A stretch of DNA of 64,000 bases from an uncultured Clostridiaceae bacterium (lineage in GTDB: Bacteria; Bacillota; Clostridia; Ch29), in NCBI GenBank assembly GCA_964508195.1, contig CAZDSH010000001.1, positions 67,263-131,262 of the forward strand. The letters run 5' to 3'. Both the position numbers and the translations under genes were made by a program. The notes beneath the pieces were generated by a model. That model saw only the letters and a list, made by a program, of their open reading frames with translations, made no database searches and was not told where the DNA came from. Of the stretch, positions 11,661 through 26,326 are shown piece after piece (the first letter of the stretch is position 1; each line of letters begins with the position of its first letter).

Positions 11661-12407
11661 TTACATAACAATTCCCCCGTCAACGGCAATTATTTCGCCT
11701 GTAATGTATGAAGCGAGATCGCTGCTTAAAAACGCCGCAAGCCAGGCTACGTCCTCGGGCGTACCCGCCCTTTTGAGGGCTATGGCCCTAAGCATATTCT
11801 CCCTTAAATCCCGGGGCAACTTATCGGTCATATCCGTTTGTATAAACCCCGGGGCTATTGCATTAACGGTGACTCCACGGCTACCAAGTTCCTTCGCCGC
11901 TGCCTTCGTAAAGCCTATTATCCCCGCCTTAGAAGCACAATAATTAGTCTGGCCGGCGTTTCCGGATATACCGACTACCGAGGATATGTTCACTATTCTT
12001 CCCCACCTTTGTTTTATCATAACCCTGGCCGCGGCTTTAGTACAATTGAATACTCCCTTAAGGTTCGTACTTATTACACTGTCCCAATCTTCTTCTTTCA
12101 TGCGTATGAGCAGCCCATCCCGGGTTATACCGGCACAGTTTACCAGTATGTCCAATGTGCCGAACCTCTCCACCGCAGCCTTTATAAGACCCTTTGTTTT
12201 GACTGCATCGGCAACATCGGCGGCTATTGATACCGCTATACCACCGCTTTCGTTTATCAGGTTAGCTGTTTCCTCCGCGGCCTTGGCGTTACTTGTATAG
12301 TTAACGACAACCTTCGCTCCAAGCTTTGCTAAGGTTATCGTTATAGCCCGACCGATACCCCTTGAACCACCGGTAACTACAGCGGTTTTCCCCTCTAGCT
12401 TAAACAT
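11661..12407 (-). CDS. fabG: 3-oxoacyl-ACP reductase
   Basis: SDR family: TGGSRGIG Rossmann motif and a YxxxK catalytic motif (YCASK). Confidence 0.9.
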   Translation of the reverse strand: MFKLEGKTAVVTGGSRGIGRAITITLAKLGAKVVVNYTSNAKAAEETANLINESGGIAVSIAADVADAVKTKGLIKAAVERFGTLDILVNCAGITRDGLLIRMKEEDWDSVISTNLKGVFNCTKAAARVMIKQRWGRIVNISSVVGISGNAGQTNYCASKAGIIGFTKAAAKELGSRGVTVNAIAPGFIQTDMTDKLPRDLRENMLRAIALKRAGTPEDVAWLAAFLSSDLASYITGEIIAVDGGIVM

Positions 12408-13345
12408 TTTACCCCCTCCAATACCCCCAGCGCATCCCGAAGGGTTTCTAAATTTTCGATGTTCATAACCTTTGCCCCCCTATGTATCTTTTTAATGAAA
12501 TTCGACAGCGTTTTACCCGGCCCGATTTCCACAAAGGTATCCGCTCCCAAGGCTATCATCCTTTTCACGCTTTCTTCCCATAGTACAGGGTTGCTCACTT
12601 GCTTTATGAGATTATGTTTTATATCATCGCTACAGGTTTCCTCCATGGCGGTTACATTCGCAATTACCGGTATTGAAGCATCTTTAACTATAATCCTTTC
12701 TAATTCTTTTTTAAGCTTGCCCTCAACGGGTTTTAAAAGGCTACAATGGAAAGGTGCGCTAACGGGCAATATTACGGCCCTTCTTGCCCCCATTTCCTTT
12801 GCAATGTCTACGGCCAATGCTACGGCTTTCTTTTCACCGGAGATAGCGACCTGACATGCACAGTTATAATTAGCCGGCTCCACTGTTCCCGCTATTGAAG
12901 CCTTGTAACAGCACTCTTCAACCTTTTCTTTATCAAGGCCTATGATCGCTGCCATTGTACCGGTGTCAAGGGGCACAGCCCTTTGCATATATCTGCCCCT
13001 TTTCTGTACTATTTTAACTGCATCATCAAAATCCATGGAACCTGCGGCGACCAGTGCTGAGTATTCGCCTAGGCTAAGTCCCGCTGCCATATCAGGTTTT
13101 ATTCCGTGTTTCTTAAGCTGCATAAGGATTGCTACGCTCAATGTAAGTATAGCCGGCTGCGTGATCTCCGTTTCCATCAGTTTTTCATCGGGGCCTTCGA
13201 ATATAATCTCTTTAAGACCAAACCCCAGGGCATCATCGGCCCTTTTAAATACCTTTTCCGACAGCGGCAAGTTTTCATACAATTCCTTACCCATACCTAT
13301 ATACTGTGCTCCTTGCCCCGGAAATATAAATGCAACTAGACCCAT
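12395..13345 (-). CDS. fabD: Malonyl-CoA:ACP transacylase
   Basis: GLSLGEYSA active-site GxSxG motif and an FPGQGAQ N-terminus. Confidence 0.9.
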   Translation of the reverse strand: MGLVAFIFPGQGAQYIGMGKELYENLPLSEKVFKRADDALGFGLKEIIFEGPDEKLMETEITQPAILTLSVAILMQLKKHGIKPDMAAGLSLGEYSALVAAGSMDFDDAVKIVQKRGRYMQRAVPLDTGTMAAIIGLDKEKVEECCYKASIAGTVEPANYNCACQVAISGEKKAVALAVDIAKEMGARRAVILPVSAPFHCSLLKPVEGKLKKELERIIVKDASIPVIANVTAMEETCSDDIKHNLIKQVSNPVLWEESVKRMIALGADTFVEIGPGKTLSNFIKKIHRGAKVMNIENLETLRDALGVLEGVKCLS

Positions 13346-14295
13346 AACTTCCTCCCTAAAATATTTCCCGAAATTTTTATAACTTCCTCCGCTTCCCTTA
13401 GGATATCTTCCATTATTTTATTTACAGGCTTTATATCCCCTATAAGCCCGGCAATTTGCCCGCTCATAACGGAACCGTCTTTAATGTTACCTTCCACCAC
13501 CGCTTCCCGTAACTTACCCGCTCCTAATCTTTCTAATTTTTCCGCCGGCGCACCCTGGGCCTCTAATTTTTCGAAGGCCCGGGTCAGCCTATTTCTAAGA
13601 CACCTTACAGGATGGCCCGTACTTTCGCCTGTTATTATTGCATCCCTGTCCCTGGCCTTTAAAAGAGCGTCTTTATAGTTTTGGTGTACAGTACACTCTG
13701 TCGAACATACAAATCGCGTACCCATCTGCACCCCCTCGGCACCTAGGGCTAGAATCGCAACTAACCCCCTGCCATCGGCTACACCGCCAGCACCTATAAC
13801 AGGAATGTCCACCGCATCCACTACCTGGGGCACAAGGCACATAGTGGTCAGTTTGCCTACATGTCCACCGGCTTCGGTGCCCTCGGCTATAAGGGCATCG
13901 GCACCGACTAATTCCATACGCTTTGCAAGGGCTACGCTGGGTACTACGGGAATGACCTTTGCACCCATAGCCTTTAAAGGTCCTATATATTTGCCGGGGT
14001 TCCCGGCACCGGTGGTCACAACCCTGATTTCATGCCTTATTATTACCTCTATGACCTCATCCACGAAGGGGGATAATAACATCACATTAACTCCAAAGGG
14101 CTTATCCGTAAGCTCTTTTGTTTTTAATATTTCATTTTCCACTACATCCCCGGGGGCATTCCCCGTGCCTATGATCCCGAGGCCTCCGGCCTCGGAAACC
14201 GCTGCTACAAGCCCAGCGGTAGCTATCCATGCCATACCCCCCTGAAGGATTGGACGCTCTATGCCCAATATTTCGCATATCCTAGTATGTATCAC
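13336..14295 (-). CDS. fabK: Enoyl-ACP reductase II (FMN-dependent, nitronate monooxygenase family)
   Basis: NPD/2-nitropropane dioxygenase-like TIM barrel (GGMAWIATAGL...GAGG), embedded in the fab operon. Confidence 0.8.
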   Translation of the reverse strand: MIHTRICEILGIERPILQGGMAWIATAGLVAAVSEAGGLGIIGTGNAPGDVVENEILKTKELTDKPFGVNVMLLSPFVDEVIEVIIRHEIRVVTTGAGNPGKYIGPLKAMGAKVIPVVPSVALAKRMELVGADALIAEGTEAGGHVGKLTTMCLVPQVVDAVDIPVIGAGGVADGRGLVAILALGAEGVQMGTRFVCSTECTVHQNYKDALLKARDRDAIITGESTGHPVRCLRNRLTRAFEKLEAQGAPAEKLERLGAGKLREAVVEGNIKDGSVMSGQIAGLIGDIKPVNKIMEDILREAEEVIKISGNILGRKLWV

Positions 14296-14322
14296 TTATA
14301 TCCCTCCCATTCCAAGCCTATA

Positions 14323-15321
14323 TCAGCGGTCCCAATTAATCGCACAGGAGCCCCAAGTAAGCCCTGCCCCGAAACCAACTAGCACTATATTGTCGCCACC
14401 CTTAATAAGCCCCCTCGTTCGTGCCTCATCCAAGGCCACGGGTATAGAGGCCGAGGACATGTTGCCATATTTATCCAAGTTAACGAATATCCTGTCGTTA
14501 TCTATTTTAAGCCTTTTAACGGCGGATTCCACTATTCGCCTATTTGCCTGATGGGGCACAATAAGATCAATATCTTTGAGGGTTAAACCGGCCTTTTTCA
14601 AAACGCCGAGGGTGGCCCTTGGCATAATGTTTACGGCAAATTTATAAACTTCGCCGCCATCCATATGTATGAAATGTTTGCCGGATTTAACGGTATCCAC
14701 GGTGGCGGGCATTCTGGAGCCGCCGGCGGGGAGCGTTAGAACTTCTCCCTTCCAACCCTCTGCACCTAAAAGGGAGGCGAGTATACCCGTACCTTTTTCA
14801 ACTTTACTTAGCACCGCGGCCCCTGCACCATCACCGAACAGGACGCAGGTGTTTCTATCCTCCCAATTGCATATCTTAGTAAGGGTTTCAGCTCCTATTA
14901 CCAGTACAATTTTTGCATCACCGGTGGAAATAAACTTTTCCCCCAGGGAAAGGCCGTATATAAACCCCGTACATGCGGCCTGTACATCAAAGGCGAAGGC
15001 ATTTCTAGCACCAAGGTTAGATTGGACTATACAGGCCGTCGACGGGAAAGCCATGTCCGGTGTTGCTGTAGCTACAATTATCCCATCTATCTCTTTTTCA
15101 GAAACCTCTGCATCGTTCATTGCCTTTAACGCCGCCGCCGTGGCTAAATCCGAAGTAGCAGTATTGGAATCGCTTATCCTTCGTTCTGAAATACCCGTGC
15201 GGCTCTTTATCCATTCATCGCTGGTATCTACCATTTTCTCCAAATCAAAATTTGTTAATATTTTTGTCGGTAAATGCCTACCTGTTCCAATTATGCCAAC
15301 GGATTCTACAGTTCTAATCAT
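14323..15321 (-). CDS. fabH: 3-oxoacyl-ACP synthase III
   Basis: FabH Cys context (AACTGF) and a C-terminal GFGAGLTWG motif. The ATG at 15321 follows a GGAGGA ribosome-binding site; the ORF-track start at 15348 lies inside that site. Confidence 0.9.
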   Translation of the reverse strand: MIRTVESVGIIGTGRHLPTKILTNFDLEKMVDTSDEWIKSRTGISERRISDSNTATSDLATAAALKAMNDAEVSEKEIDGIIVATATPDMAFPSTACIVQSNLGARNAFAFDVQAACTGFIYGLSLGEKFISTGDAKIVLVIGAETLTKICNWEDRNTCVLFGDGAGAAVLSKVEKGTGILASLLGAEGWKGEVLTLPAGGSRMPATVDTVKSGKHFIHMDGGEVYKFAVNIMPRATLGVLKKAGLTLKDIDLIVPHQANRRIVESAVKRLKIDNDRIFVNLDKYGNMSSASIPVALDEARTRGLIKGGDNIVLVGFGAGLTWGSCAINWDR

Positions 15322-16315
15322 CGTTATCCTCCAATTGTATATGGGCACTTATTTTTGATTCTATACCTTCATCTATAAACTTTATTGCTTGCATTATTGC
15401 ATTTTCTATAGCAAGGGCATCGGAACTGCCATGGGCCTTTATACAGCCGCCTTTTATACCGAGGAAGGGTGCACCGCCGTACTGTTTATAATCGAGGGTA
15501 TCTTTAATCCTAGTGAGCCCGGGTTTTAACATAAGGGCCGCCATCTTTGTAAGGGTATTTGCGGTAAACTCCTCTTTAAGCTGTGCAAACAACGACATTG
15601 CCAGACCTTCAGTAAGTTTTAATATAACATTACCGACAAAACCGTCACAAACTAACACGTCGGCTACCCCGCTTAGTGCGTCCCGGGCTTCTATATTGCC
15701 TATAAAATTAAGGGAAGACTTTTTAAGCAGCCTGTAGGCATCCTTTGTAAGAATATTTCCTTTGCTCTTTTCAATACCAATATTTATAAGGGCAACCTTA
15801 GGGGATTCTATATCCATTATGCCCTCCATATAGGCAGAACCCATGAACCCGAACTGTAAAAGATTTATCGGCTTACACTCAGCGTTGGCCCCTGCATCTA
15901 TAAGCATAACGCCACCGCCCTCTGTAGTGGGCAATATCGGGGCTAAGGCCGGGCGGTCTATACCTTTGATCCTACCTACGCGGAGCAAAGCCCCTGCCAG
16001 AAGGGCTCCCGTGTTACCCGCGGAAATAAAAGCATCGGCCTGCCCGTTCCTAACCTTTTGTAGGCCTACTACCATTGAGGAATCTTTTTTCTTTTTAATC
16101 GCCTCAACCGGCGCATCGTCCCCTTGGATTACTTCGTCTGTGTGTTGTATTTCTATTCTTTGGGTTTTATATCCTTTAAGAGCATCCTCAATATCCTCGC
16201 CCTTACCGAGGAGCAAAAGTTTTAGCCTTTCATTCCTATGCAGTGCCCCTACGCATCCTTTAACGATCTCCAAGGGTGCATTATCGCCACCCATAGCATC
16301 GACGGCTATTATCAT
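15314..16315 (-). CDS. plsX: Phosphate acyltransferase PlsX
   Basis: MIIAVDAMGGDNAP is the canonical PlsX N-terminus. Sits between fapR and fabH. Confidence 0.9.
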   Translation of the reverse strand: MIIAVDAMGGDNAPLEIVKGCVGALHRNERLKLLLLGKGEDIEDALKGYKTQRIEIQHTDEVIQGDDAPVEAIKKKKDSSMVVGLQKVRNGQADAFISAGNTGALLAGALLRVGRIKGIDRPALAPILPTTEGGGVMLIDAGANAECKPINLLQFGFMGSAYMEGIMDIESPKVALINIGIEKSKGNILTKDAYRLLKKSSLNFIGNIEARDALSGVADVLVCDGFVGNVILKLTEGLAMSLFAQLKEEFTANTLTKMAALMLKPGLTRIKDTLDYKQYGGAPFLGIKGGCIKAHGSSDALAIENAIMQAIKFIDEGIESKISAHIQLEDNDD

Positions 16316-16333
16316 TATAATATCCCTCCTACC

Positions 16334-16900
16334 CTACGCCTCTAGGGCTACTAGAATAAATTTACCCCGAAACATTTCCTGCATTTTGTGCTTAATTTTT
16401 ACCCATACAAAAAATTTGTTACCCCTTCTTCTTGTAACCTTTGCCTGGGCGATGAGTTTTTGGCCCGAACGTACCGGATGCTTATATTTTATGTTCGCCA
16501 CTCCTATAAGGGCGACATTTGCATCTATTACCGCTATTGCAAGGGATTCCGCTTGGGCATATATGAACTGTCCGCGGACTATATTAGTCTTTTCGAAGGC
16601 CATTGAACTATCGGTCTCCAACATAGATATGCCCCGTTCGCCGAGGTCCACGTCTAATAGCTCACCGACGATTTCTTTGCCGGATATAGTTCTGACCTTT
16701 GCGTATGTACCCTCCGCCACATTTTTTATCCTTTCACGGAGCTCCGGTATTCCAAGCTCCATCCTATCAAGTCTGATGGTATGTATGCTGACCTTAAAAT
16801 ACTCGCTTAACTCTTCGTCGGTTAAAAAGGGATCCTTTTTAATCTCTTCAGACAGGGCCCTTTGCCTTTCCTTTTTATTCTTGCCCCTATACCTTCCCAT
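16334..16900 (-). CDS. fapR: Fatty acid and phospholipid biosynthesis regulator FapR
   Basis: 188-aa protein with an N-terminal HTH and a C-terminal hotdog thioesterase-like fold. First gene of the fapR-plsX-fab operon. Confidence 0.85.
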
Positions 16901-17132
16901 AAAAAACCCCTCCCTCTCCTATACGGTCCAACAGTACATTGATGGCCTTTATCCGGGGCTATCATTATGACTTGGGCATATCACCTGATACTAACATTAA
17001 GTATACATTATGTTTTTTATTAAATCAATGAAAATTTCCATAAAAAATCAAGGGACCCGCCATAGCCCTTGTTCCATTTGGGCTTAGGCGAACCCCTTTA
17101 TGCAGATAACTTCGTGTACATAACACAGAATC

Positions 17133-19214
17133 TTAACTACATATATATTCCCCGGCATCTATATATCCCCCTAGGAGGTTAAGGTATTCTTCCCCCTCTA
17201 GGGACAATCTGGTGCCCTTAGGTCCCCTGTGGATCACCACTAAACCGTATTGCGCCAATATACCTAACCTGTTTCGTATCATCTGTTCCGTCATCTTTAT
17301 CCGACCTTTACAACGCTGGGCGATACCCTTTCTGCTAAGGTAAACATCCCCCCTATCCTTTGCGTTTTTAAGTACCCCGAGGATCGTAGCCAACTCCTCC
17401 AGGGGCATTTCCCCCTCTATGGCCCTTATCACTTTCTCCCGGCGCATAAACCTATCCTTCGGCGCAAAGGGTAAATCCTTACTCCTTACAGGACCGTCGC
17501 CTACGATATGGTATAGATATTCGATTACGTTTTCCAATTCACGAATATTACCCGGCCAATCGTATTCCATAAATTCTTCCATAGCTTCCTCGCTTATTTC
17601 CATCGCCTCCCCCTTCGGAAACTTTTCGAGCATCTTTTCTATAAGTAGTGGTATATCTTCTTTATGTTCCCTTAGAGGCGGTATCCGTATAGGCAGCACC
17701 TTTAACCTATAGAACAGATCCTCCCTGAACTCTCCGGCACTGACAAGTTCTTCGAGGTTTTTGTTTGTAGCCGCGATGATCCTTACGTCGATGGGAATAA
17801 TTTTAGTGCCGCCGATGCGCAATACCTCTTTTTCCTGTAAGACCCTTAATAACCTTGCCTGTATTTTTAGGGAAGCATCCCCTATTTCATCGAGGAAAAT
17901 GGTTCCCTTATGGGCCTGCTCGAATAACCCCGCGTGTCCGCCCTTCCTCGCCCCGGTAAAGGCGCCTTCCTCGTAGCCAAAGAGTTCGCTTTCTAGAAGG
18001 TTTTCCGGGAGCGCTGCAAAACTCACCGCTACGAAGGGCCCGTATTGCTTGCCCGAGGCCTTGTGTATAGCATGGGCGAAAAGTTCCTTACCGATGCCGC
18101 TTTCGCCGAGTAAGAGCAAAGTGGAATTGCTCCTTGCCAATTTTCGCGCGATCTCCTTCGTTTCGACTATTTGTTTACTCTTGCCCACTATATTTGAAAA
18201 CCCATATTTAGAGGTATGGCCCCTTTTCATCAGATTCGCCCTTACTATATTCTCCATTTCAATTATTTCTGATAAGTCCTTAAATGTTATAATAACCCCG
18301 TTATTGACATCGTTTTTTATAATAGGCATCATCGTAAGGAGTATTTTTTTGCCCATTATTTCGTGTACTTTTCTATAAAGGCCGAAATTTTTACCCAAAA
18401 GGGCCTTCGCTTCAAAGTCCAATATATCGTCTAAATTTATTTCACCGACGTTTTTTTCGCCCTTTTCCGAAAACAACTTATTTGCATTCTCATTGCTAAA
18501 CATAACATTGCCGTCGCTGTCTATACCCACTATTCCGTCGTTTATGACGTTGAGTATTGTATGTAATTGTTTCATTATATTATCATTCGTTTCAAGGGCC
18601 TTTACCACTTTTTTGCCGGAATAAACGAAATCCTGTAAAAACCTGGCGGACAATAGGTTTGTCCTTTCATCGAGTATATCGAGCTTTATCATTATTTCGG
18701 TAATAGTAGTAAGATCTATTTTGCTAAAGCTTAAATCTATTATATTTTCCACATATTCGGGGACCATGTGGATCTCCCCCGTAGTTATTGCGTAATCCGC
18801 ATGTTGGGTAAACCTCTGCCCCGGGTAATAGGGATACATCCTTATATGGTTTATACCCAGCTCCTCAAGGAGGGATATGGAGTTTTCCGCAAGGTATTTA
18901 TTCACATCGACAAATAGCACGTCCTCCCCCTGGGGTATGCGGAGCACGTCTTCGAGTTTTGAATGGTTCAAAGATCTCCGGGCTACGAGTATTTCCGCCC
19001 GGGGGTCTATATATTTTAACGCTGTCTCTTTGAGGTATTCATGACATATAAGTACGAGGGTGTCGTAGATCTTTTCCTCGATACCCTCTAGGATAGAGTA
19101 TCCCTTTATCGCAACCTCGGGTCCTAAAAGATTAGTCAACTGGTTGATCACATTTTCTTTATGCTTTTCAGAACGGGTTATTATGGATAATCCAAATCGT
19201 GTAACATCTTGCAT
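17133..19214 (-). CDS. Sigma-54-dependent transcriptional activator (enhancer-binding protein): unknown N-terminal domain, PAS, AAA+, and an atypical C-terminal domain
   Basis: Central AAA+ sigma-54 interaction domain with Walker A (GESGIGKE), the GAFTGA motif (EGAFTGA) and a Walker B/arginine-finger region. PAS-like segment around residues 210-320 of the protein. The first roughly 200 residues are an unrecognised domain. The C-terminal roughly 110 residues lack the Fis-type HTH. Confidence 0.85.
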
Positions 19215-19471
19215 TTACTGTTTCACCTCCTTCCTTCTATATTATACCAGAGAGTTAACCGGTTTTAAAGGGTTTTAAAAAAATAACCTTTAAGACCCAA
19301 TAAAGCGTTCAGCCCCGTGGAAATTAACTCCATGAACCTTTGGTTTATTATACCCTATTTTACTTATACGACCTATTCTACGTATCCCTGTATGCCTAGG
19401 CCGTGTTTCCATAATGAATGTTTATAATCCATCCCCTTGAATGTTTCTCAAAAGTATCCCTATACATTAAT

Positions 19472-19487
19472 TGGCACGAGTATTGCA
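19472..19487 (+). promoter_or_regulatory. Sigma-54 (-24/-12) promoter TGGCACG-N4-TTGCA upstream of kamA
   Basis: TTGGCACGAGTATTGCA matches the RpoN consensus TGGCACG-N4-TTGCW exactly. It is divergent from, and adjacent to, the enhancer-binding protein gene. Confidence 0.75.
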
Positions 19488-19735
19488 CATTTACTAAGTT
19501 GCTGATCAGCAAACCTAAATAAGGTAAGGGATTCGTTAACGAAGGTTTAACGTTTTTATCGCTTTTTAAAAAAACTTTCCGTATTCTTAGGTCGCGGTAT
19601 AGCTTTGTTTAACCGATGCCCGGGGAGCCCGTTATTTCGGACTTTAACCTTTAATAATACGGAAATGAGCATAACATTGTAAATGCGTTATATATATAAA
19701 TAGTAGAATTTTTATCTAGATTAGGAGGTTAAAAG

Positions 19736-20998
19736 ATGGAAAATTCAAAATTAAGCTCAAGGGAAATATCCCTTCAAAGGGCGGATGTTTTAAAGAGTCG
19801 TATAGATCCTTATCTTGAAGCAAAGTTAGACATTCACTCCGGCTTGGATCAAAAAGATGAAATAAGGGCAAGGCAGGCTAGGATTAAAGAGATTATGGGC
19901 GCTAGCGAAGATCAGTGGAACGACTGGAATTGGCAAATAGATAACCGGGTAACGGATTCCGATACCCTTGCCAAATTTCTTGAACTAACTACTAAACAAA
20001 AGAAGGATATTGATGCTGTAGCAGCGAAGTTTAGATGGGCTATTTCCCCATACTTTCTATCTTTGATAGAACCTAGCGGGAATCATTATGAGCATCCTAT
20101 ATACTTGCAGTCCGTTCCCACGGGTCTGGAGCTCGTAGAAGGTATCGGTAGCGCAGATCCCATGGCTGAAGAGTTTACGAACCCTGCACCCTGCATTACC
20201 CGCCGGTATCCCGACAGATTGATTATAAACGTTACGAACCAGTGCGGAATGTACTGTCGCCACTGTCAAAGGAGAAGGAATATCGGAGAAGTGGATGCAC
20301 CACAACCTAAGGAGAAGCTGCAGGCGGCCGTAGATTATATTAGAAACACGCCGGAGATCAGGGACGTACTTATAACCGGCGGCGATCCTTTCACCTTCTC
20401 CGACGAGATGCTAGATTGGCTCCTTGGCGAACTTGATAGTATTCCCCACCTTGATTTTAAAAGAATTGGCACAAGGATGCCCGTTACATTACCCCAAAGG
20501 GTAACGCCAGAACTTTGTGATATGCTCAAAACACATCATCCTTTATTCATAAACTTACAATTTAACAGTCCTATGGAAGTATCCGAGGATTCCTTAAAGG
20601 CCTGCGAAATGTTAGCCGATGCAGGGATACCCTTAGGGAACCAGGCAGTGCTTCTAAGGGGCGTAAACGATCATCCCTTTGTGATGAAAAAGCTATGCCA
20701 AGAGCTGTTAAAGGCACGGGTAAGGCCGTACTATATATTCCACGCCAAGGGTGTAGTGGGGACTCTACACTTTAGGACTAGCGTAGATATAGGCATAGAA
20801 ATTATGGAACATCTAAGGGGTTATACCTCGGGGCTTGCTATTCCGACGTTCATCGTAAATGCCCCAGAGGGTAAGGGCAAAACGCCTATGCTACCCGAAT
20901 ACGTTATCTCCCATGGCAGGGATACCATCACTATAAGGACCTGGGAAGGCGAAATAATAGAGTATCCAAACAAAGATGCCGATGTAGAGTACGAATAA
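19736..20998 (+). CDS. kamA: L-lysine 2,3-aminomutase (radical SAM, PLP-dependent)
   Basis: 420-aa protein with the KamA-type CxxxCxxC motif (NQCGMYCRHCQRRR) and a full-length C-terminal domain. EpmB-type enzymes are shorter. Ribosome-binding site AGGAGGT. Confidence 0.85.
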   Translation: MENSKLSSREISLQRADVLKSRIDPYLEAKLDIHSGLDQKDEIRARQARIKEIMGASEDQWNDWNWQIDNRVTDSDTLAKFLELTTKQKKDIDAVAAKFRWAISPYFLSLIEPSGNHYEHPIYLQSVPTGLELVEGIGSADPMAEEFTNPAPCITRRYPDRLIINVTNQCGMYCRHCQRRRNIGEVDAPQPKEKLQAAVDYIRNTPEIRDVLITGGDPFTFSDEMLDWLLGELDSIPHLDFKRIGTRMPVTLPQRVTPELCDMLKTHHPLFINLQFNSPMEVSEDSLKACEMLADAGIPLGNQAVLLRGVNDHPFVMKKLCQELLKARVRPYYIFHAKGVVGTLHFRTSVDIGIEIMEHLRGYTSGLAIPTFIVNAPEGKGKTPMLPEYVISHGRDTITIRTWEGEIIEYPNKDADVEYE

Positions 20999-21102: not shown

Positions 21103-22140
21103 ATGAGAAAAAGACTAGCATTGTTGTTAGTGCTCCTATTTGCGTTTTCTACTATACTGGTAGGATGCACTACACCAGCAGACACCAATGGGGAAGATGA
21201 TGCACCGGCGCCGGTCCAAAAGCAACAGATCTCCATATTAACCGGTTCTACCGGCGGTACGTACTTCGCTTTAGGCGGGGCCATGGCCAATACTTGGAAT
21301 GAATACCTAGATAATGTACAGGTGACGGGCCAACCCAGCGGCGCATCCGTGGAGAACATTAACCGTCTCCATGCCGGCGAGGTAGAGCTTGGTATGTCTA
21401 TGAACAACATTGCCGACGATGCCTGGAACGGGGTAGGCGCCTTCCCGGGGGAACAACGGGGTTTTAGGACTATAGGCGTTATTTATCCCGAGGTTTATCA
21501 GGGCGTAGCTATTAAAGGGTCTGGCATTAAAACCCTCGAGGATGTAAAGGGTAAAAGAGTAGCCGTAGGCCCTGTTGGGAGCGGTACAGTAGTGATGACC
21601 GAGACTGTGTTCAATGAAGCGGGCATGTCCTTTGATGATGTAAAAGCAAACTATGACGGCTTTGGCGATGCTGCCAGCAAGATGAAGGATGGACACTTAG
21701 ATGCGGCCTTCAACGTATTAGCAGTTCCCGCCGCAGCGATACTGGATATACAATCGGATCGTGAAATAGAAATAATCGAAATAGGCGATGATCTATACGA
21801 AAAAGTTAACGCTAAGTTCCCCTATTTCAGCCAATATGTGATACCCGCTGGAACCTATGGGAATGAAGAGGACAAATTAACGGTAAACTGTGTTGCTGCA
21901 TTGTACGCGTCCCCGGATATGTCCGAGGATTTGGCCTATGACATAACGAAGGTATGGTTTGAGAAAACTGCCCATACCGCGGCAGCCCACGGTGCAGCCC
22001 AGTGGCTTGCAGACGAACTCGCCGCAGGGAATAAGGACGTCATGCTCGATGGCATAACGACGCCGCTACATGTCGGGGCCTATAAGTATTTCAAAGACAT
22101 AGGCGTAGACGTCCCGGATATGATTAAACCTATTGATTAA
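21103..22140 (+). CDS. TAXI-family TRAP transporter solute-binding lipoprotein
   Basis: Lipoprotein signal peptide with lipobox (LVGCTT). ILTGSTGGTYFALGGAMANTWN is the TAXI (TRAP-associated extracytoplasmic immunogenic) signature. Confidence 0.8.
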   Translation: MRKRLALLLVLLFAFSTILVGCTTPADTNGEDDAPAPVQKQQISILTGSTGGTYFALGGAMANTWNEYLDNVQVTGQPSGASVENINRLHAGEVELGMSMNNIADDAWNGVGAFPGEQRGFRTIGVIYPEVYQGVAIKGSGIKTLEDVKGKRVAVGPVGSGTVVMTETVFNEAGMSFDDVKANYDGFGDAASKMKDGHLDAAFNVLAVPAAAILDIQSDREIEIIEIGDDLYEKVNAKFPYFSQYVIPAGTYGNEEDKLTVNCVAALYASPDMSEDLAYDITKVWFEKTAHTAAAHGAAQWLADELAAGNKDVMLDGITTPLHVGAYKYFKDIGVDVPDMIKPID

Positions 22141-22293: not shown

Positions 22294-24291
22294 ATGGCGG
22301 AAAGGCAGAAAGATGACAGCATTATATTAGACGAAATTAAACTGGATGAAGAAAAATCCGAAGAGATTTTAGCTAAATACGATCGGGAATTCGATTTCAG
22401 AAGGCTTAGCGGGCCCTTAGAGAAATTCGTTTTTTTATGTGCGGTTGCTTGGTCCTTGGCCCAACTTTACACTGCGGCCTTCGGCGTTTTCCCTTCAACA
22501 TTACAAAGGGCACCCCACGTAGGTATCGCCCTTGTACTTATTTATATATTGTACCCGGCTAAAAGGGGCAGCAAAAACAATAAAGTACCGTGGTACGATT
22601 TTGTATTTGCCTTCCTAGGTGTTGTAGTCTCTTCGTACCATGTGATTTATTATAAAGAGCTAGTTTGGCGTGCAGGGGTTTACACTACAACGGATATGGT
22701 AATAAGCGTTATTGCCGTCTTATTGATAATAGAAGCAACTAGAAGAATGGCTGGACCGGTCATCGTTTCCCTAGCATCCTTTTTCCTGCTCTATGCGTAT
22801 TTCGGCGATTATTTTCCATCCTTTATGGCCCATCACGGCCTAACTTTAAAGAGAATAGTAATATTCCAATGGATAAGCACCGAGGGTATTTTAGGTATAC
22901 CCATTCAAGTATCATCGACCTTTATATTCCTTTTTATGCTTTTTGCGACCTTTTTAAAGAAAAGCGGCATTGGGGATTGGATGACGGAAATAGCCGTAGG
23001 ATTAACGGGCGGCGCTATCGGCGGGCCTGCTAAGGCCGCGGTAATAGCAAGCGCAGCCCAGGGTACGATCTCCGGTAGCTCTGTTGCCAATACTGTAGGT
23101 ACTGGCTCCGTTACGATTCCCCTTATGAAGAGCATCGGCTACCGTAAAGAGTTCGCCGGTGCCGTTGAAGCAGCGGCCTCTACAGGCGGCCAGCTTATGC
23201 CCCCTATAATGGGCGCTGCAGCATTTATTATGGTGGAGTTTCTTAATATCCCCTACAGAACGATCGCTATTTCAGCGGCGATACCCGCAGCCCTTTATTT
23301 TACGGGGATATTTATAACGGTGCATTTAGAGGCAAAAAAGGCAGGCCTTTTAGGTATACCTAAAGAACGACTGCCGGATTGGAAACAGCTCGTTAAGAAA
23401 AAATGGTTCCTTGCCACGCCGATAGCGGGTATTGTCTACCTCTTGGTCAAGGGATACACTCCGATGCTGGCTGCTTTTTATGCCATTATACTGTGTATCG
23501 CTGCGTCAATGATATTGAAAGAAACCCGTATGTCAATAATGGATATTATTTCGGCCCTAGAGGAGGGGGCCAAGTCCGCCCTCCCGGTAGTTGTAGCCTG
23601 TGCCACTGCGGGTATAATAGTAGGCATAGTTACGTTGACGGGCCTAGGCATGAAGATGTCCGGCGGCCTTGTAAGATTAGCCGGAGGCAATGTCTACCTA
23701 ACTATGCTCTTTACGATGATAGGTTCGCTGATACTAGGTATGGGCGTTCCCACTACGGCAAACTATATCATCCAAGCAACGGTTTCGGCGCCGGCGTTAA
23801 TGGTCCTAGGGGTTCCGCCCTTAGCGGCCCATTTGTTTGTGTTCTATTTCGGTATAGTGGCGGATATTACTCCCCCTGTAGCCCTGGCAGCCTTCGCCGG
23901 TTCGGGGATAGCCCAATCGGACCCTTTAAAGACTGGATTCGAGGCCTTTAAACTGGGTTTTGCCGCATATTTAGTGCCCTATATATTTGCCCTATCCCCT
24001 ATCCTTGTATTGATAAGACCGGAAGGGCTTTCAACATGGGGCTTTGCCTTTAGCGTAATCCTCGCAATCGGTACTGCACTTATAGGTATGCTATGTATAG
24101 GCGGTTCGACTACTAATTATTTTGTAACCAATGACAAATGGTATGAACGTGTCCTACTCCTTATTGCAGGGGTTACTTTGATACACCCGAGCTTCCATAC
24201 AGACCTGTTCGGAGCCGTTGTGTTAGCTGGGGTTTGGTTCCTGCAAACAAGCCGGGTAAAAAAAAGGGCGGCAGCGGAAAAAAGCATATAA
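22294..24291 (+). CDS. TAXI-type TRAP transporter fused permease subunit (fused 4TM/12TM DctQM-like)
   Basis: 665-aa polytopic membrane protein of the TRAP fused-permease family, immediately downstream of the TAXI solute-binding gene. Confidence 0.8.
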   Translation: MAERQKDDSIILDEIKLDEEKSEEILAKYDREFDFRRLSGPLEKFVFLCAVAWSLAQLYTAAFGVFPSTLQRAPHVGIALVLIYILYPAKRGSKNNKVPWYDFVFAFLGVVVSSYHVIYYKELVWRAGVYTTTDMVISVIAVLLIIEATRRMAGPVIVSLASFFLLYAYFGDYFPSFMAHHGLTLKRIVIFQWISTEGILGIPIQVSSTFIFLFMLFATFLKKSGIGDWMTEIAVGLTGGAIGGPAKAAVIASAAQGTISGSSVANTVGTGSVTIPLMKSIGYRKEFAGAVEAAASTGGQLMPPIMGAAAFIMVEFLNIPYRTIAISAAIPAALYFTGIFITVHLEAKKAGLLGIPKERLPDWKQLVKKKWFLATPIAGIVYLLVKGYTPMLAAFYAIILCIAASMILKETRMSIMDIISALEEGAKSALPVVVACATAGIIVGIVTLTGLGMKMSGGLVRLAGGNVYLTMLFTMIGSLILGMGVPTTANYIIQATVSAPALMVLGVPPLAAHLFVFYFGIVADITPPVALAAFAGSGIAQSDPLKTGFEAFKLGFAAYLVPYIFALSPILVLIRPEGLSTWGFAFSVILAIGTALIGMLCIGGSTTNYFVTNDKWYERVLLLIAGVTLIHPSFHTDLFGAVVLAGVWFLQTSRVKKRAAAEKSI

Positions 24292-24574: not shown

Positions 24575-25072
24575 CTACTCCAGCAACTTTTTAAGCTTTT
24601 CCATCCTTGGATCGATCCCCTCATGCCTACAGTCGCATTGCGTCGTGTTCCTATCGCCACCACAAATGGGACAAAGACCTTTACAATCCTCGCTACACAA
24701 TACCTTTATAGGTAGTTCCAATAGAATACTTTCTTTTACCGGTACATTAAGGTCTATTCTGTCACCACGGATGGGCAAAACATCCTCACCTTCCCCGGTT
24801 TCGCTATACATTTGGCTAAAGGCCGTACTAAGGGGATACTTAACAGTACGAAGGCACCTTGAACATTGGAGGATAACCTCTGTTTGCACCTCACCTCGGA
24901 TCAAAAACACATTATCATTTCTTTCGATACTGCCCTTTACATTTATAGGGCTACTAAAACTTATGTTTTCACCGCCGCTGTCAATACATCCGATGTTCTC
25001 CTTAAGTTCAAAGGACACACGACCACTGTCATCACTTTTTAAGTTTTTAATATACATTATCATCGTTAGCAC
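24575..25072 (-). CDS. yceD: YceD/DUF177 family protein (large ribosomal subunit accumulation)
   Basis: C-terminal Cys cluster (CPICGGDRN...CDC) and the conserved yceD-rpmF arrangement. Confidence 0.8.
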   Translation of the reverse strand: MLTMIMYIKNLKSDDSGRVSFELKENIGCIDSGGENISFSSPINVKGSIERNDNVFLIRGEVQTEVILQCSRCLRTVKYPLSTAFSQMYSETGEGEDVLPIRGDRIDLNVPVKESILLELPIKVLCSEDCKGLCPICGGDRNTTQCDCRHEGIDPRMEKLKKLLE

Positions 25073-25132: not shown

Positions 25133-26326
25133 TTACCCTATTTCCCTAATTGTATCCCTGGCTATCATCAGCTCTTCGTTCGTGGGAATAACTATCGCTT
25201 TTACCGCACAGTCATGCTTACTTATGATTGCCTCCTCAGCCCTAACATTGTTGGCCTTTTTATCCAGTTCCAGGCCGAGGTATTCTAGGCCGGTGCACAA
25301 TTTCTCCCTCATCGTAATAGAGTTCTCTCCTAGACCCGCTGTAAACACTATAACGTCTACCCCGTTCATAACCGCTGCATAGGAGCCTATGAACTTTTTA
25401 ACCTTGTATGCAAAGACGTCAATAGCCAAGGCCGCCCTTTTGTTGCCCTTTGCCGCGGCCTCCTCTAGGTCACGGAAATCACTGCTCACGCCAGATATGC
25501 CTAAAACGCCGGAGCTTTTATTTAATATATTATTAACTTCTTCTATTGTCAACTGTTCCTTTTCCATAAGGAATGCGATTATCGCAGGATCAATGCTCCC
25601 ACATCGGGTTCCCATGGCAAGCCCCTCTAAAGGCGTAAATCCCATACTGGTTTCTACGGATTTACCGTTCTTTACCGCCGTTATGCTGGCACCGTTCCCT
25701 AAATGGCATGTTATTATCCTAAGATCCTCCAGGGGTTTACCGAGGATCTCAGCAGCCCTTTCAGCTACGTACTTATGGGAAGTCCCATGGAAACCGTATT
25801 TACGCACACCGTATTTTTTATAGTATTCGTAGGGAATGGGATAAATATATGCATAATCCGGAATAGTATGGTGATAAGCCGTATCAAAGGTACCGGCCAT
25901 CGGTATCCCGGGCATGAGCTGTCGGCAGGCCTCTATGCCCATAATATTAGGCGGGTTATGTAGGGGTGCCAAATCCGCACATTCCCTTAGCGTATCCATA
26001 ACCTCCTGCGTAATCCTAACGGAACCGGAGAATTTTTCCCCGCCATGAACAACTCTATGGCCTACAGCGGATATATCGCTCGTGTCTTTTATTACTCCAT
26101 CTTTTTTGTCCGTTAATACATCGGTTATGACTTTAAGTGCAGCCTTATGATCGGCCATCGCAGTTTCGATTATTATTTCATCTTTATCGGCGGCTTGGTG
26201 CTTTAATCTTGACCCTTCTATGCCGATTCTTTCTGCTAATCCACGGGCCATCACGCTTTCATGTTCCATGTCCAGCAATTGATATTTTACAGAAGAACTG
26301 CCGCAGTTCACTACTAAGACTTTCAT
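25133..26326 (-). CDS. ackA: Acetate kinase
   Basis: [17 protein letters not shown] is the canonical AckA N-terminus; 397 aa. Confidence 0.95.

Follow-up and report, generated by a model that had tools for sequence, protein, structure and literature searches.

A one-component sigma-54 activator family with an unannotated N-terminal domain and a winged-helix C terminus, and its probable glutamate 2,3-aminomutase target operon

The ORF at 17133-19214 of the window, i.e., the whole 64-kb stretch of DNA analyzed here, encodes a real sigma-54 activator (bacterial enhancer-binding protein, EBP). The protein is a one-component EBP of an uncharacterized family found mainly in Bacillota. It runs from a two-lobed N-terminal domain (N-domain, residues 1-180) through a long helix, a probable PAS domain, the AAA+ domain, the lid, and a linker helix to a winged helix at residues 605-688. 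The activator probably switches on the neighboring glutamate 2,3-aminomutase/transporter operon. The best explanation of the whole, to which we give a probability of roughly 70%, is a one-component EBP that would sense an effector, dock on DNA repeats, and activate the aminomutase operon.

Gene, probable PAS domain, and AAA+ core

The features of the activator gene are as follows.

17133-19214, minus strand: EBP gene, complete, 693 aa plus stop (ORF list and translation)
18675-19214, minus strand: N-domain, residues 1-180, candidate effector sensor (AF2 model; no annotated family)
18573-18674, minus strand: long connecting helix into the PAS domain, residues 181-214 (AF2 secondary structure)
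18240-18572, minus strand: probable PAS domain, approximately residues 215-325 (sub-cutoff Pfam matches; PAS on record in homologues)
17688-18191, minus strand: sigma-54 interaction AAA+ domain, residues 342-509 (Pfam PF00158, Sigma54_activat, E 2.7e-66)
18084-18107, minus strand: Walker A, GESGIGKE, residues 370-377 (motif location)
17949-17966, minus strand: GAFTGA loop (sigma-54 contact), residues 417-422, exact match (motif location)
17880-17900, minus strand: Walker B, IFLDEIG, residues 439-445 (motif location)
17463-17672, minus strand: AAA+ lid domain, residues 515-584 (Pfam AAA_lid_14, E 7.8e-20)
17415-17462, minus strand: linker helix before the winged helix, residues 585-600
17151-17402, minus strand: winged helix-turn-helix, residues 605-688 (AF2 model, Foldseek, family profile)
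17250-17291, minus strand: predicted recognition helix of the winged helix (AF2 model)

The ATG codon lies at 19214 and is preceded by a GGAGGTG Shine–Dalgarno sequence. A plus-strand reading of 17133-19214 was rejected: its translation yields only stops, which places the gene on the minus strand. The strand had been left unstated in the initial annotation. Public data contain one protein 100% identical to the activator and full-length orthologues at 62-93% identity.

The AAA+ core, described in the initial annotation as canonical with GAFTGA, is so: PF00158 matches with high significance, and the Walker A, GAFTGA, and Walker B motifs are all present. Sequence matches in the PDB to NifA, NtrC, FleQ, ZraR, and PspF are confined to this core. 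The search for an RpoN box in the 64-kb window was negative, and the presence of sigma-54 in the genome is therefore assumed.

A probable PAS domain at approximately residues 215-325 had been overlooked. Pfam PAS (PF00989) matches residues 216-263 with an E value of 5.6e-4 (20.3 bits versus a cutoff of 22.6), and PAS_9 matches residues 225-316 at E 0.12, likewise sub-cutoff in the activator. In many homologues, PF00989, PF13426, PF08448, or PF13188 is recorded at the same position. The family also includes variants of ~560-600 aa that lack the PAS segment.

N-terminal domain

The AF2 model of the N-domain (pLDDT 87.4, pTM 0.78) has a beta-alpha-beta order and forms two Rossmann-like alpha/beta lobes. 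Pfam gave no family in residues 1-231 of the activator at E ≤ 10, and in 21 diverse homologues the first 215 residues gave neither a consistent Pfam or NCBIfam match nor a meaningful PDB sequence match. Receiver, GAF, V4R, ACT, and CBS domains have no Pfam match in residues 1-215 of the activator, with only scattered single-member chance matches among the 21 homologues. Foldseek against the PDB returned generic two-lobed alpha/beta folds (TM ≤ 0.36) and no convincing neighbor. The earlier claim that the first ~200 residues match no familiar sensor domain thus held in the Pfam, NCBIfam, PDB, profile, and fold searches.

A known domain below the detection threshold has to be considered here. The N-terminal module might be a strongly diverged PrpR_N, an acyl-CoA/2-methylcitrate-type sensor, which occupies the same EBP N-terminal position with ~180 aa in two alpha/beta lobes and which short stretches of the N-domain resemble by eye in E. 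coli PrpR. PrpR-type activators likewise carry a two-lobed alpha/beta sensor of ~180-200 residues at the EBP N terminus; they differ in that the searches revealed no sequence or profile similarity of the sensors, and in ending in HTH_8. PrpR_N (PF06506) has no match in 21 family members, hhalign of the N-domain against a shallow 15-sequence PrpR_N alignment, drawn from a separate homologue search, gave a probability of 0.3%, and PrpR_N structures are not among the top Foldseek matches of the N-domain. Sequence-level PrpR_N membership was rejected after negative comparisons, one to a lone E. coli sequence and one to the 15-sequence alignment, and we regard the diverged-PrpR_N reading as unlikely.

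The preferred reading is that the N-domain is an effector sensor. Residues R80, G120, and P152 of the N-domain are invariant, and its conserved and subfamily-switch residues lie at the C-terminal ends of strands in both lobes. Rossmann-like folds bind their ligands at the strand C-termini. The N-domain may sense its ligand in an unusual way, as had been proposed. It is quite improbable that the N-domain binds no small molecule at all and instead senses a co-regulated transporter or partner protein, or only controls oligomerization. A TRAP, NhaC-type, Opp, or DcuC gene does adjoin nearly every locus examined, and the N-domain shows no conserved motif for a cofactor or for phosphorylation, as such a role would allow. 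However, the conserved and specificity-switch residues cluster at the usual ligand site, and the adjacent transporters are from unrelated families, which argues against a shared protein–protein interface.

C-terminal winged helix

The C-terminal AF2 model (pLDDT 83.5) has the topology a1-b-a2-a3-b-b plus a C-terminal helix, with elements, in the model's own numbering, at H36-51, a short strand, H59-66, H74-86, E90-92, and E99-101. Its Foldseek neighbors are MepR/MarR, CodY, LmrR, CggR, LexA, and Rrf2 (probability ~1.0, TM 0.45-0.60). CggR_N was matched by 20 of 22 family members (best E 2.1e-9), and CggR_N, HTH_12, or Rrf2 matches were found in most; the activator's own CggR_N (PF21715) score is 16.5 bits (E 0.0067) versus a cutoff of 30. 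The family C-terminal profile matches CggR (7oyk, E 1.8e-6) and SorC (2o0m, E 4e-6), and a profile built on the C-terminal domain alone found two fragments and nothing else. These models and profiles identify the C terminus as a predicted CggR/SorC-like winged helix, and the MarR-type fold neighbors agree with the winged-helix-like module noted in the initial annotation.

The Fis-type HTH_8 is absent, again as first proposed: PF02954 has no match at E ≤ 10 in the C-terminal 139 residues of the activator, and it was found in none of the 120 homologues listed, nor in ten further family members scanned.

Residues R628, R647, and G667 are invariant, with Arg in the predicted recognition helix and Gly in the wing. 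We infer that the winged helix binds DNA. In other AAA+ clades, winged helices that follow the lid can bind proteins or act without sequence specificity, and this precedent, together with the sub-threshold winged-helix Pfam matches of the activator itself, is what speaks for a regulatory or protein-interaction module and activation from solution, as in EBPs devoid of a DNA-binding domain. We consider such a role highly improbable, as the closest profile and structure matches (CggR, SorC, MarR, and CodY) are operator-binding domains, the family shows no variation at the recognition-helix Arg or the wing glycines, and conserved repeat arrays stand at enhancer distance.

Family extent and genomic context

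Clustered at 50% identity, proteins with the N-domain form at least 928 clusters, and the domain is N-terminal in all of them. It is accompanied by the AAA+ and winged-helix partners, without HTH_8, in every member examined, including the variants without PAS. Judged from these sequences, the architecture is a trait of the family and not a peculiarity of the activator gene. The family is widespread but undescribed in Firmicutes, and in a literature search, which was not exhaustive, no described winged-helix-type EBP was found.

Neighboring genes across the family encode M20 peptidase, amidohydrolases, aminotransferases, and glutamate mutase with methylaspartase, and the adjoining transporters are of the NhaC, Opp, DcuC, and TRAP types. 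The theme of the family is the uptake and catabolism of amino acids and peptides.

Probable target operon and sigma-54 promoter

The elements of the divergent operon and its promoter are as follows.

19472-19487, plus strand: sigma-54 promoter TGGCACGAGTATTGCA (-24/-12), TGGCAC-N5-TTGCA, pointing at the aminomutase gene
19736-20998, plus strand: target gene 1, glutamate 2,3-aminomutase (radical SAM, KamA family; TIGR04368; Pfam Radical_SAM, LAM_C)
21103-22140, plus strand: target gene 2, TAXI-family TRAP solute-binding protein (NMT1_3, E 1.4e-78; TIGR02122, 274.9 bits)
22294-24291, plus strand: target gene 3, fused TRAP permease (Pfam DctM, DUF3394; TIGR02123, 734.6 bits)

The sequence TGGCACGAGTATTGCA is the sole zero-mismatch -24/-12 match in the 64-kb window. 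The orthologous loci were taken from a single-protein scan, which gave eight orthologues and one unrelated EBP, and all eight retain TGGCAY-N5-TTGCW at the same place, with synteny. In the flanks covered for the Bacillus sp. RO1 and Alteribacter loci, a pattern search gave no canonical -24/-12 site. The first target gene was assigned by the TIGR04368 equivalog model (654.2 bits versus a cutoff of 650), and the lysine 2,3-aminomutase model gave a sub-cutoff score of 469 bits. A non-exhaustive literature search returned no report of sigma-54 control of glutamate 2,3-aminomutase.

An Rfam search of the long leader gave nothing meaningful, with one chance miRNA match (E 0.2), and RNAalifold on six orthologous leaders gave no conserved RNA structure. 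A riboswitch or known RNA in the leader was rejected on these results.

Candidate enhancer and palindrome

Three further elements lie in the intergenic region.

19261-19297, no strand: candidate enhancer (upstream activator site, UAS) GGTTTTAAAGGGTTTTAAAAAAATAACCTTTAAGACC (conserved block, phased-repeat pattern)
19241-19269, minus strand: sigma-70-like promoter of the activator gene, with -35 TTTAAA, a 17-nt spacer, and TG-extended -10 TATAAT
19501-19510, no strand: perfect, invariant palindrome GCTGATCAGC, shortly after the -12 element, at ~+3 to +13

Comparison of nine orthologous intergenic regions shows a conserved block at 19261-19297, which lies between the promoter and the start of the EBP gene, at a distance of ~175-210 bp upstream from the -24 element. 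The block forms an imperfect inverted repeat: GGTT/AAAGGGTT repeats recur at a 10-bp interval and are accompanied by an inverted copy, AACCTTTAA. The copies in the window are one direct and one or two inverted, with no array. The promoter of the activator gene has 10 of 12 consensus matches plus TG in a consensus scan, its -10 block, ATT(A/G)TA(A/C)CA, is conserved in nine orthologues, and its -35 hexamer overlaps the candidate UAS.

Distant homologues carry AA(A/T)GG(G/T) repeats with a ~10-bp phase, often followed by an inverted copy, 80-230 bp upstream of their sigma-54 promoters. This short, A/T-rich motif, which was defined after viewing the sequences, was observed 39 times versus 8 expected from mononucleotide shuffles, and AAAGGG is the most enriched 6-mer. 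Two loci scored zero in the count, as the repeats there run into the end of the EBP gene. The conserved block is likely the enhancer, and the unusual enhancer recognition put forward in the initial annotation gains indirect support, at the level of sequence, from the phased repeats at the upstream block and beside the distant homologues.

The palindrome GCTGATCAGC might offer a different site for the winged helix. It is unique in the window. It is identical in nine orthologous loci amid an otherwise variable leader, and no other non-promoter element is as strictly conserved in the nine orthologous regions; moreover, a perfect 10-bp dyad is the type preferred by dimeric winged-helix proteins. 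If it were the real site, the upstream A/T-rich block would be the activator promoter only, and the overlap with the sigma-70-like promoter could alone explain the conservation of that block. This is very unlikely. A protein bound at ~+3 to +13 would block transcription, not activate it. No comparable element lies downstream of the sigma-54 promoters in distant members, all of which carry phased AA(A/T)GGG repeats upstream, and the conserved block exceeds the -35/-10 hexamers and reaches up to the AACC inverted arm. We therefore retain the upstream block as the candidate enhancer. The palindrome at the start site is unaccounted for by the activation model proposed below.

Proposed activation mechanism

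Here, we propose a mechanism in which the identity of the effector, the activation, and the autoregulation are inferred, while the folds, the domain content and family distribution, the conservation of the promoter and of the upstream block, and the repeat pattern come from the analyses above. The N-domain, with the PAS domain, would bind a small effector in the cleft between the lobes. The effector would most likely be L-glutamate or a closely related amino acid; this guess is weak because the aminomutase is barely above the glutamate-specific cutoff (654 versus 650). Effector binding may free the AAA+ assembly from inhibition, and the winged helices would dock the oligomer on the phased GGTT/AAAGGG-type repeats at 19261-19297. 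DNA looping would bring the ATPase to the sigma-54 holoenzyme at 19472-19487, and ATP hydrolysis would open the promoter of the glutamate 2,3-aminomutase/TAXI-TRAP operon. Since the enhancer overlaps the -35 element of the activator's own sigma-70-type promoter, its binding probably also autoregulates.

A further-reaching and somewhat doubtful reading is that the family represents a distinct EBP class, which would combine a new two-lobed fold for sensing amino acids or peptides with a repeat array that templates ring assembly. Enhancer recognition would then be unlike that of Fis-type EBPs: several winged helices of one oligomer would sit along the same face of the DNA, on AA(A/T)GG(G/T) repeats with a ~10-bp phase that end in an inverted copy.

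The sole systematic regulon reconstruction for Clostridiales (PMC6615313) covered Fis-type proteins only. The present family comprises at least 928 clusters at 50% identity and differs from Fis-type EBPs in its sensor as well as in its DNA-binding module. The one-component reading gives testable predictions for the target operon, the promoter, the helically phased enhancer motif, and the candidate ligand-contact positions. Should these hold, the unannotated domain could enter databases, the label "PAS, ATPase and Fis domain", a common mis-annotation, could be corrected, and the prediction of regulons could reach amino-acid and peptide catabolism in anaerobic Firmicutes. Biosensor design would gain a new effector-sensing module, and regulation of the glutamate 2,3-aminomutase (beta-glutamate) step, which is poorly understood, would be linked to a dedicated sensor.

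Comparison with known regulators

PrdR of Clostridioides difficile and RocR and AcoR of Bacillus share with the activator the AAA+ domain with GAFTGA, the lid, and, probably, the PAS domain before the ATPase. They are also one-component regulators whose genes lie next to a target of amino-acid catabolism with a -24/-12 promoter, and amino-acid catabolism is a described theme of Firmicute sigma-54 activators (PMC7438776, PMC6615313). PrdR (NCBIfam NF041552 equivalog) is the best NCBIfam match of the activator, covering residues 168-583 with 384.3 bits versus a cutoff of 795. The first ~167 and the last ~110 residues of the activator fall outside this match, and it ends in a winged helix, not in HTH_8.

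The EBP KamR acts at an adjacent -12/-24 promoter to switch on a KamA-family radical-SAM aminomutase gene, and it is described as being of the PAS type without an additional N-domain (PMC4428206). Compared by description only, KamR resembles the activator in its KamA-family target and adjacent -12/-24 promoter, but its target is a lysine enzyme, whereas that of the activator is a glutamate enzyme, and only the activator has the additional N-domain.

The best profile match of the C-terminal domain is the winged helix of the CggR/SorC repressors. CggR binds direct repeats. In these proteins, however, an N-terminal winged helix is joined to a sugar-phosphate-binding domain, and they are sigma-70 repressors, not AAA+ activators. 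The LevR/ManR-type EBPs are Firmicute sigma-54 activators that bind DNA via a winged-helix-type domain, not a Fis-type HTH. In LevR, the DNA-binding domain is N-terminal, unlike that of the activator, and regulation proceeds via PRD and PTS EIIA/EIIB domains; Pfam found no PRD or PTS domain in the activator. LevR-type EBPs are listed in PMC7438776.

In the Clostridiales survey, TGT-N10-12-ACA type sites were given for 15 of 39 Fis-type EBP groups (PMC6615313). By contrast, the candidate sites of the activator are phased AA(A/T)GG(G/T) repeats and not such dyads. GamR of Clostridioides was considered as a described relative and rejected, since its published UAS (ATTGA..TGCAAT type) differs. The peptidase/transporter target of GamR resembles contexts seen in the activator family.

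Domain organization of the activator

The initial annotation placed a sigma-54 activator at 17133–19214. These coordinates proved to be a single open reading frame (ORF), and the strand is the minus strand; read on the plus strand, the same stretch is full of stops. A Shine–Dalgarno sequence (GGAGGTG) lies 5' of the ATG. Because the public data contain an identical protein and full-length relatives of graded similarity, the activator is a real gene. Its main features are as follows.

17133–19214, minus strand: activator ORF, ATG at 19214, 693 codons
Residues 342–509: sigma-54 interaction domain (Pfam, E = 2.7e-66)
Residues 370–377: Walker A, GESGIGKE, intact
Residues 417–422: GAFTGA, intact
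Residues 439–445: Walker B, IFLDEIG, intact
Residues 515–584: AAA+ lid (Pfam)

The Pfam match and the three intact motifs bear out the canonical AAA+ core, including GAFTGA, that had been described. Sequence matches to solved structures (NifA, NtrC, FleQ, ZraR, PspF, and others) are confined to residues ~325–585. By every sequence criterion testable here, the activator belongs to the bacterial enhancer-binding protein (bEBP) superfamily.

The N-terminal and C-terminal calls of the initial annotation both stood, but a PAS domain at residues ~215–325 had been left unmentioned. It is below threshold in the window protein, and PAS-clan matches are recorded there in many homologues.

The N-terminal domain

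The N-terminus had been described as unlike familiar sensor domains, and the searches agree. Residues 1–231 matched zero Pfam families at E ≤ 10. When the N-terminal ~215 residues of 21 homologues (28–40% identical to the window protein) were aligned, no Pfam or NCBIfam family was matched by more than one member, and their profile gave no meaningful match to PDB sequences. PrpR_N was the obvious suspect; comparison by hhalign with Escherichia coli PrpR (K-12 record) and a purpose-built PrpR_N alignment gave a probability of 0.2–0.3%, and by profile comparison this identity is unlikely.

The AlphaFold2 model of the N-domain (residues 1–180), built from a 68-sequence alignment, is confident (pLDDT 87.4, pTM 0.78) and predicts two consecutive beta-alpha-beta lobes followed by a long helix.

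Residues 8–13, 35–40, 53–56, and 74–77: strands of lobe 1 (AlphaFold2)
Residues 98–102, 125–129, 141–144, and 157–160: strands of lobe 2 (AlphaFold2)
Residues 181–214: 34-residue helix after the lobes (AlphaFold2)

A Foldseek search of the PDB returned only generic two-lobed alpha/beta proteins (E ≥ 0.014, TM ≤ 0.36), namely, aspartate transcarbamoylase, type-I periplasmic binding proteins, NMDA-receptor amino-terminal domains, and MTHFD. Arg80, Gly120, and Pro152 are invariant in the family, and Ala78, Gly146, Glu147, Asp167, and Thr170 are nearly so; the aminomutase-linked subfamily is fixed differently at T18H, S58H, N103D, D104V, P145T, and R164S. Most of the conserved and subfamily-switch positions are located in the model at or just past the C-terminal ends of the strands in both lobes. 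Since Rossmann-like two-lobed proteins bind ligands at these ends, the N-domain probably functions as a sensor.

The C-terminal winged helix

No HTH_8 match was found by Pfam in the window protein, as had been claimed. The AlphaFold2 model of residues 570–693 (pLDDT 83.5, pTM 0.73) consists of a linker helix, a winged helix of a1-b-a2-a3-b-b topology, and a terminal helix. This topology supports the winged-helix or MarR-like assignment made earlier, as do the Foldseek neighbors, which are the DNA-binding domains of MepR/MarR, CodY, LmrR, CggR, LexA, and Rrf2. Among the family C-termini, Pfam matches were obtained to CggR_N (20/22, best E = 2e-9), HTH_12 (17/22), and Rrf2 (14/22), and in the PDB the family profile matched 7oyk, the DNA-binding domain of CggR (E = 1.8e-6), and 2o0m, a SorC regulator (E = 4e-6). 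Arg628, Arg647 (in the predicted recognition helix), and Gly667 (in the wing) are invariant. Two subtypes exist: TEQxxRxR with a long a2–a3 loop and PE(S/G)(R/K)VR with a short loop.

Family distribution and annotation

Searched exhaustively with HMMER, the N-domain profile matched 928 clusters (50% identity) at E ≤ 1e-3, of which 762 are at E ≤ 1e-10. Among the 150 matches listed, the domain is always N-terminal and most proteins have 650–715 amino acids; many of the shorter entries look like fragments. Variants of ~560–600 amino acids do not have the PAS segment; of those scanned, most have a winged-helix-type C-terminal match and none has HTH_8. In every member examined, the N-domain is paired with an AAA+ core and HTH_8 is absent. 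The named sources are Bacillota (Thermovenabulum, Natroniella, Acetohalobium, Halobacteroides, Koleobacter, Acididesulfobacillus, Caloramator, Brevibacillus, Alteribacter, and Bacillus). The window is from an uncultured Clostridia lineage, and its orthologues (78–83% identical) are all from metagenome-assembled genomes.

Family members are annotated at source as 'transcriptional regulator with PAS, ATPase and Fis domain'; P0005, P0006, P0017, P0024, and other homologues carry this name or RocR, AtoC, NifA, or AcoR. In none of these proteins can a Fis-type domain be detected, and the names are therefore propagated misannotations: 'Fis' in the family annotation is wrong.

The genes neighboring family members consistently concern amino acids or peptides, which also argues for a sensory N-domain. 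Among their products are M20 peptidase, asparaginase, amidohydrolases, aminotransferases of classes III and IV, glutamate mutase together with methylaspartate ammonia-lyase, and NhaC-type, Opp, DcuC, and TRAP transporters. In Halobacteroides halobius (CP003359; locus L016, 1–3877), the family member comes immediately after mutE glutamate mutase, methylaspartate ammonia-lyase, and an AtuA/DUF4387 pair; it is followed by an NhaC-type transporter with its own −24/−12 site. This locus is a second link of the family to glutamate catabolism.

Probable target operon and its promoter

Three genes diverge from the activator, encoding a radical-SAM aminomutase, a TAXI-family TRAP binding protein, and a fused TRAP permease. 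The aminomutase scores 654.2 bits against the NCBIfam glutamate 2,3-aminomutase equivalog (cutoff 650) and fails the lysine and arginine aminomutase models. L-Glutamate, the substrate of this first enzyme, is the simplest guess for the effector, with a chance of about one in three. The sole perfect −24/−12 match in the 64 kb (TGGCACGAGTATTGCA, 19472–19487) precedes the operon, and TGGCAY-N5-TTGCW is kept in 8/8 orthologous loci at the same place, directed at the aminomutase. In L005, the orthologous locus compared ORF by ORF, gene order is kept on both sides. A functional precedent exists in KamR, an EBP driving the gene of a KamA-family radical-SAM enzyme, the lysine aminomutase, through a neighboring −12/−24 promoter (PMC4428206).

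The candidate enhancer and proposed mechanism

Alignment of the nine orthologous intergenic regions revealed five conserved blocks.

19243–19251 (block a): ATT(A/G)TA(A/C)CA, read on the minus strand as a TG-extended −10
19261–19288 (block b): GGTTTnAAAnGGTTnT...AACC, candidate enhancer
19472–19487 (block c): sigma-54 promoter
19501–19510 (block d): palindrome GCTGATCAGC, invariant
Block e: ribosome-binding site

With TTTAAA at 19264–19269, block a forms a sigma-70-like promoter of the activator gene. Block b reaches 19297 as an imperfect inverted repeat in the window and three orthologues.

The sequence between the activator gene and the neighboring sigma-54 promoter was first compared at loci encoding homologues with an identity of only ~40%, and the same kind of repeat element was found: in Acididesulfobacillus, four copies of AAAGGGATAT at exactly 10-bp spacing with an inverted CCCTTT; in Thermovenabulum, four copies of AAAGGG(A/T) 8–10 bp apart with an inverted copy; and in Acetohalobium, AATGGG/AAATGGGGG with an inverted copy. 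The Acididesulfobacillus acetoxydans array (CDGJ01000036; locus L014, 6750–7000) lies between the family member and a divergent amidohydrolase/aminotransferase/Opp operon, and a second, Fis-type EBP is located tail-to-tail with the family member. The pattern was then set down as a prediction and five further loci were examined. Brevibacillus has AATGGGTTTT, AAATGGTTGTT, and AATGGGTGTT with an inverted CAACCATT; the copies in Koleobacter are AAAGGGGAC, AAAATGGGAAATC, and AAATGGGTTAG. At two loci, Halobacteroides and a Koleobacter-like contig, AATGGGTT/AATAGGTT and TTAGGGGAG/AATAGGGTT overlap the end of the activator gene, with inverted copies at each. Within the flank examined for Alteribacter, no sigma-54 promoter was found.

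In an unbiased 6-mer count, AAAGGG ranked first (13 observed versus 2.5 expected). A[AT][ATG]GG[GT] occurred 39 times versus 8 expected, a figure for a short motif chosen after inspection and for shuffles keeping base composition only; its occurrences lie 80–230 bp upstream of −24, typically in 10-bp phase. The TEQxxRxR subtype tends to pair with GGGT/GGTT-type repeats and the PE(S/G)(R/K)VR subtype with GGGA-type repeats, which over seven loci is only suggestive.

Here, we propose a mechanism for the activator, taking as observed the order of domains, both folds, the conservation of promoter, synteny, and upstream block, and the repeat pattern seen across the family. The winged helices would bind the repeats at 19261–19297, and the activator oligomer would loop the DNA to the sigma-54 holoenzyme ~190 bp downstream and open the promoter. 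Binding would also be expected to autoregulate the activator gene, because the −35 of its own promoter is inside the repeats.

By sequence, the activator is not of the PrdR, PrpR, or LevR type. The sensor domains in a survey of Clostridiales EBPs were PAS, GAF, HPr, PrpR_N, ACT, CBS, Fe-S, V4R, and receiver, and regulons were reconstructed for proteins with a Fis-type HTH only (335/431) (PMC6615313). No description of a C-terminal winged-helix EBP or of this N-domain was found in the literature, of which our coverage is incomplete. The architecture is real, widespread, and undescribed, and the enhancer model is concrete and testable; the regulatory principle is not new. The bolder reading, a new ligand-binding fold combined with phased winged helices that read the enhancer and template ring assembly, is given a probability of roughly 0.3.

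The palindrome and the leader

GCTGATCAGC is a perfect palindrome at ~+3 to +13 from the predicted start, immediately 3' of the sigma-54 promoter. It is unique within the window and identical in 9/9 orthologous loci, in which the surrounding leader varies from 105 to 285 nt. No conserved RNA structure was found at this element, and at the loci examined for distant family members, no similar element lies after the promoters. Most economically, the palindrome may be an operator at which a second regulator forms a roadblock.

The aminomutase leader (19488–19735) is 245 nt in the window, 105–118 nt in six orthologues, and 194–285 nt in two. The extra ~150 nt of the window leader holds copies of upstream-block pieces: TAACCTTTAA at 19645–19654 is identical to 19284–19293, and 19545–19574 is 77% identical to 19254–19283. 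A 14-nt inverted repeat (19576–19589/19652–19665) is also present. A Shine–Dalgarno-like GG(A/G)GGTG 15–30 nt past the palindrome is kept in the eight orthologues and degenerate in the window (19523–19531); neither a start codon nor a leader peptide is convincingly conserved after it in these nine loci.

Neighboring genes

Directly downstream of the activator is a complete fatty-acid synthesis cluster, an arrangement that is syntenic in L005.

11661–16900, minus strand: fapR-plsX-fabH-fabK-fabD-fabG

This cluster appears unrelated to the sigma-54 circuit. A 375-aa ORF antisense to plsX/fapR (15843–16970, plus strand) has no Pfam match and is most likely a spurious shadow ORF. On the other side, a 165-aa ORF (24575–25072, minus strand) has no NCBIfam match, and an ackA-family acetate/propionate kinase gene (25133–26326, minus strand) faces the end of the TRAP operon in convergent orientation.
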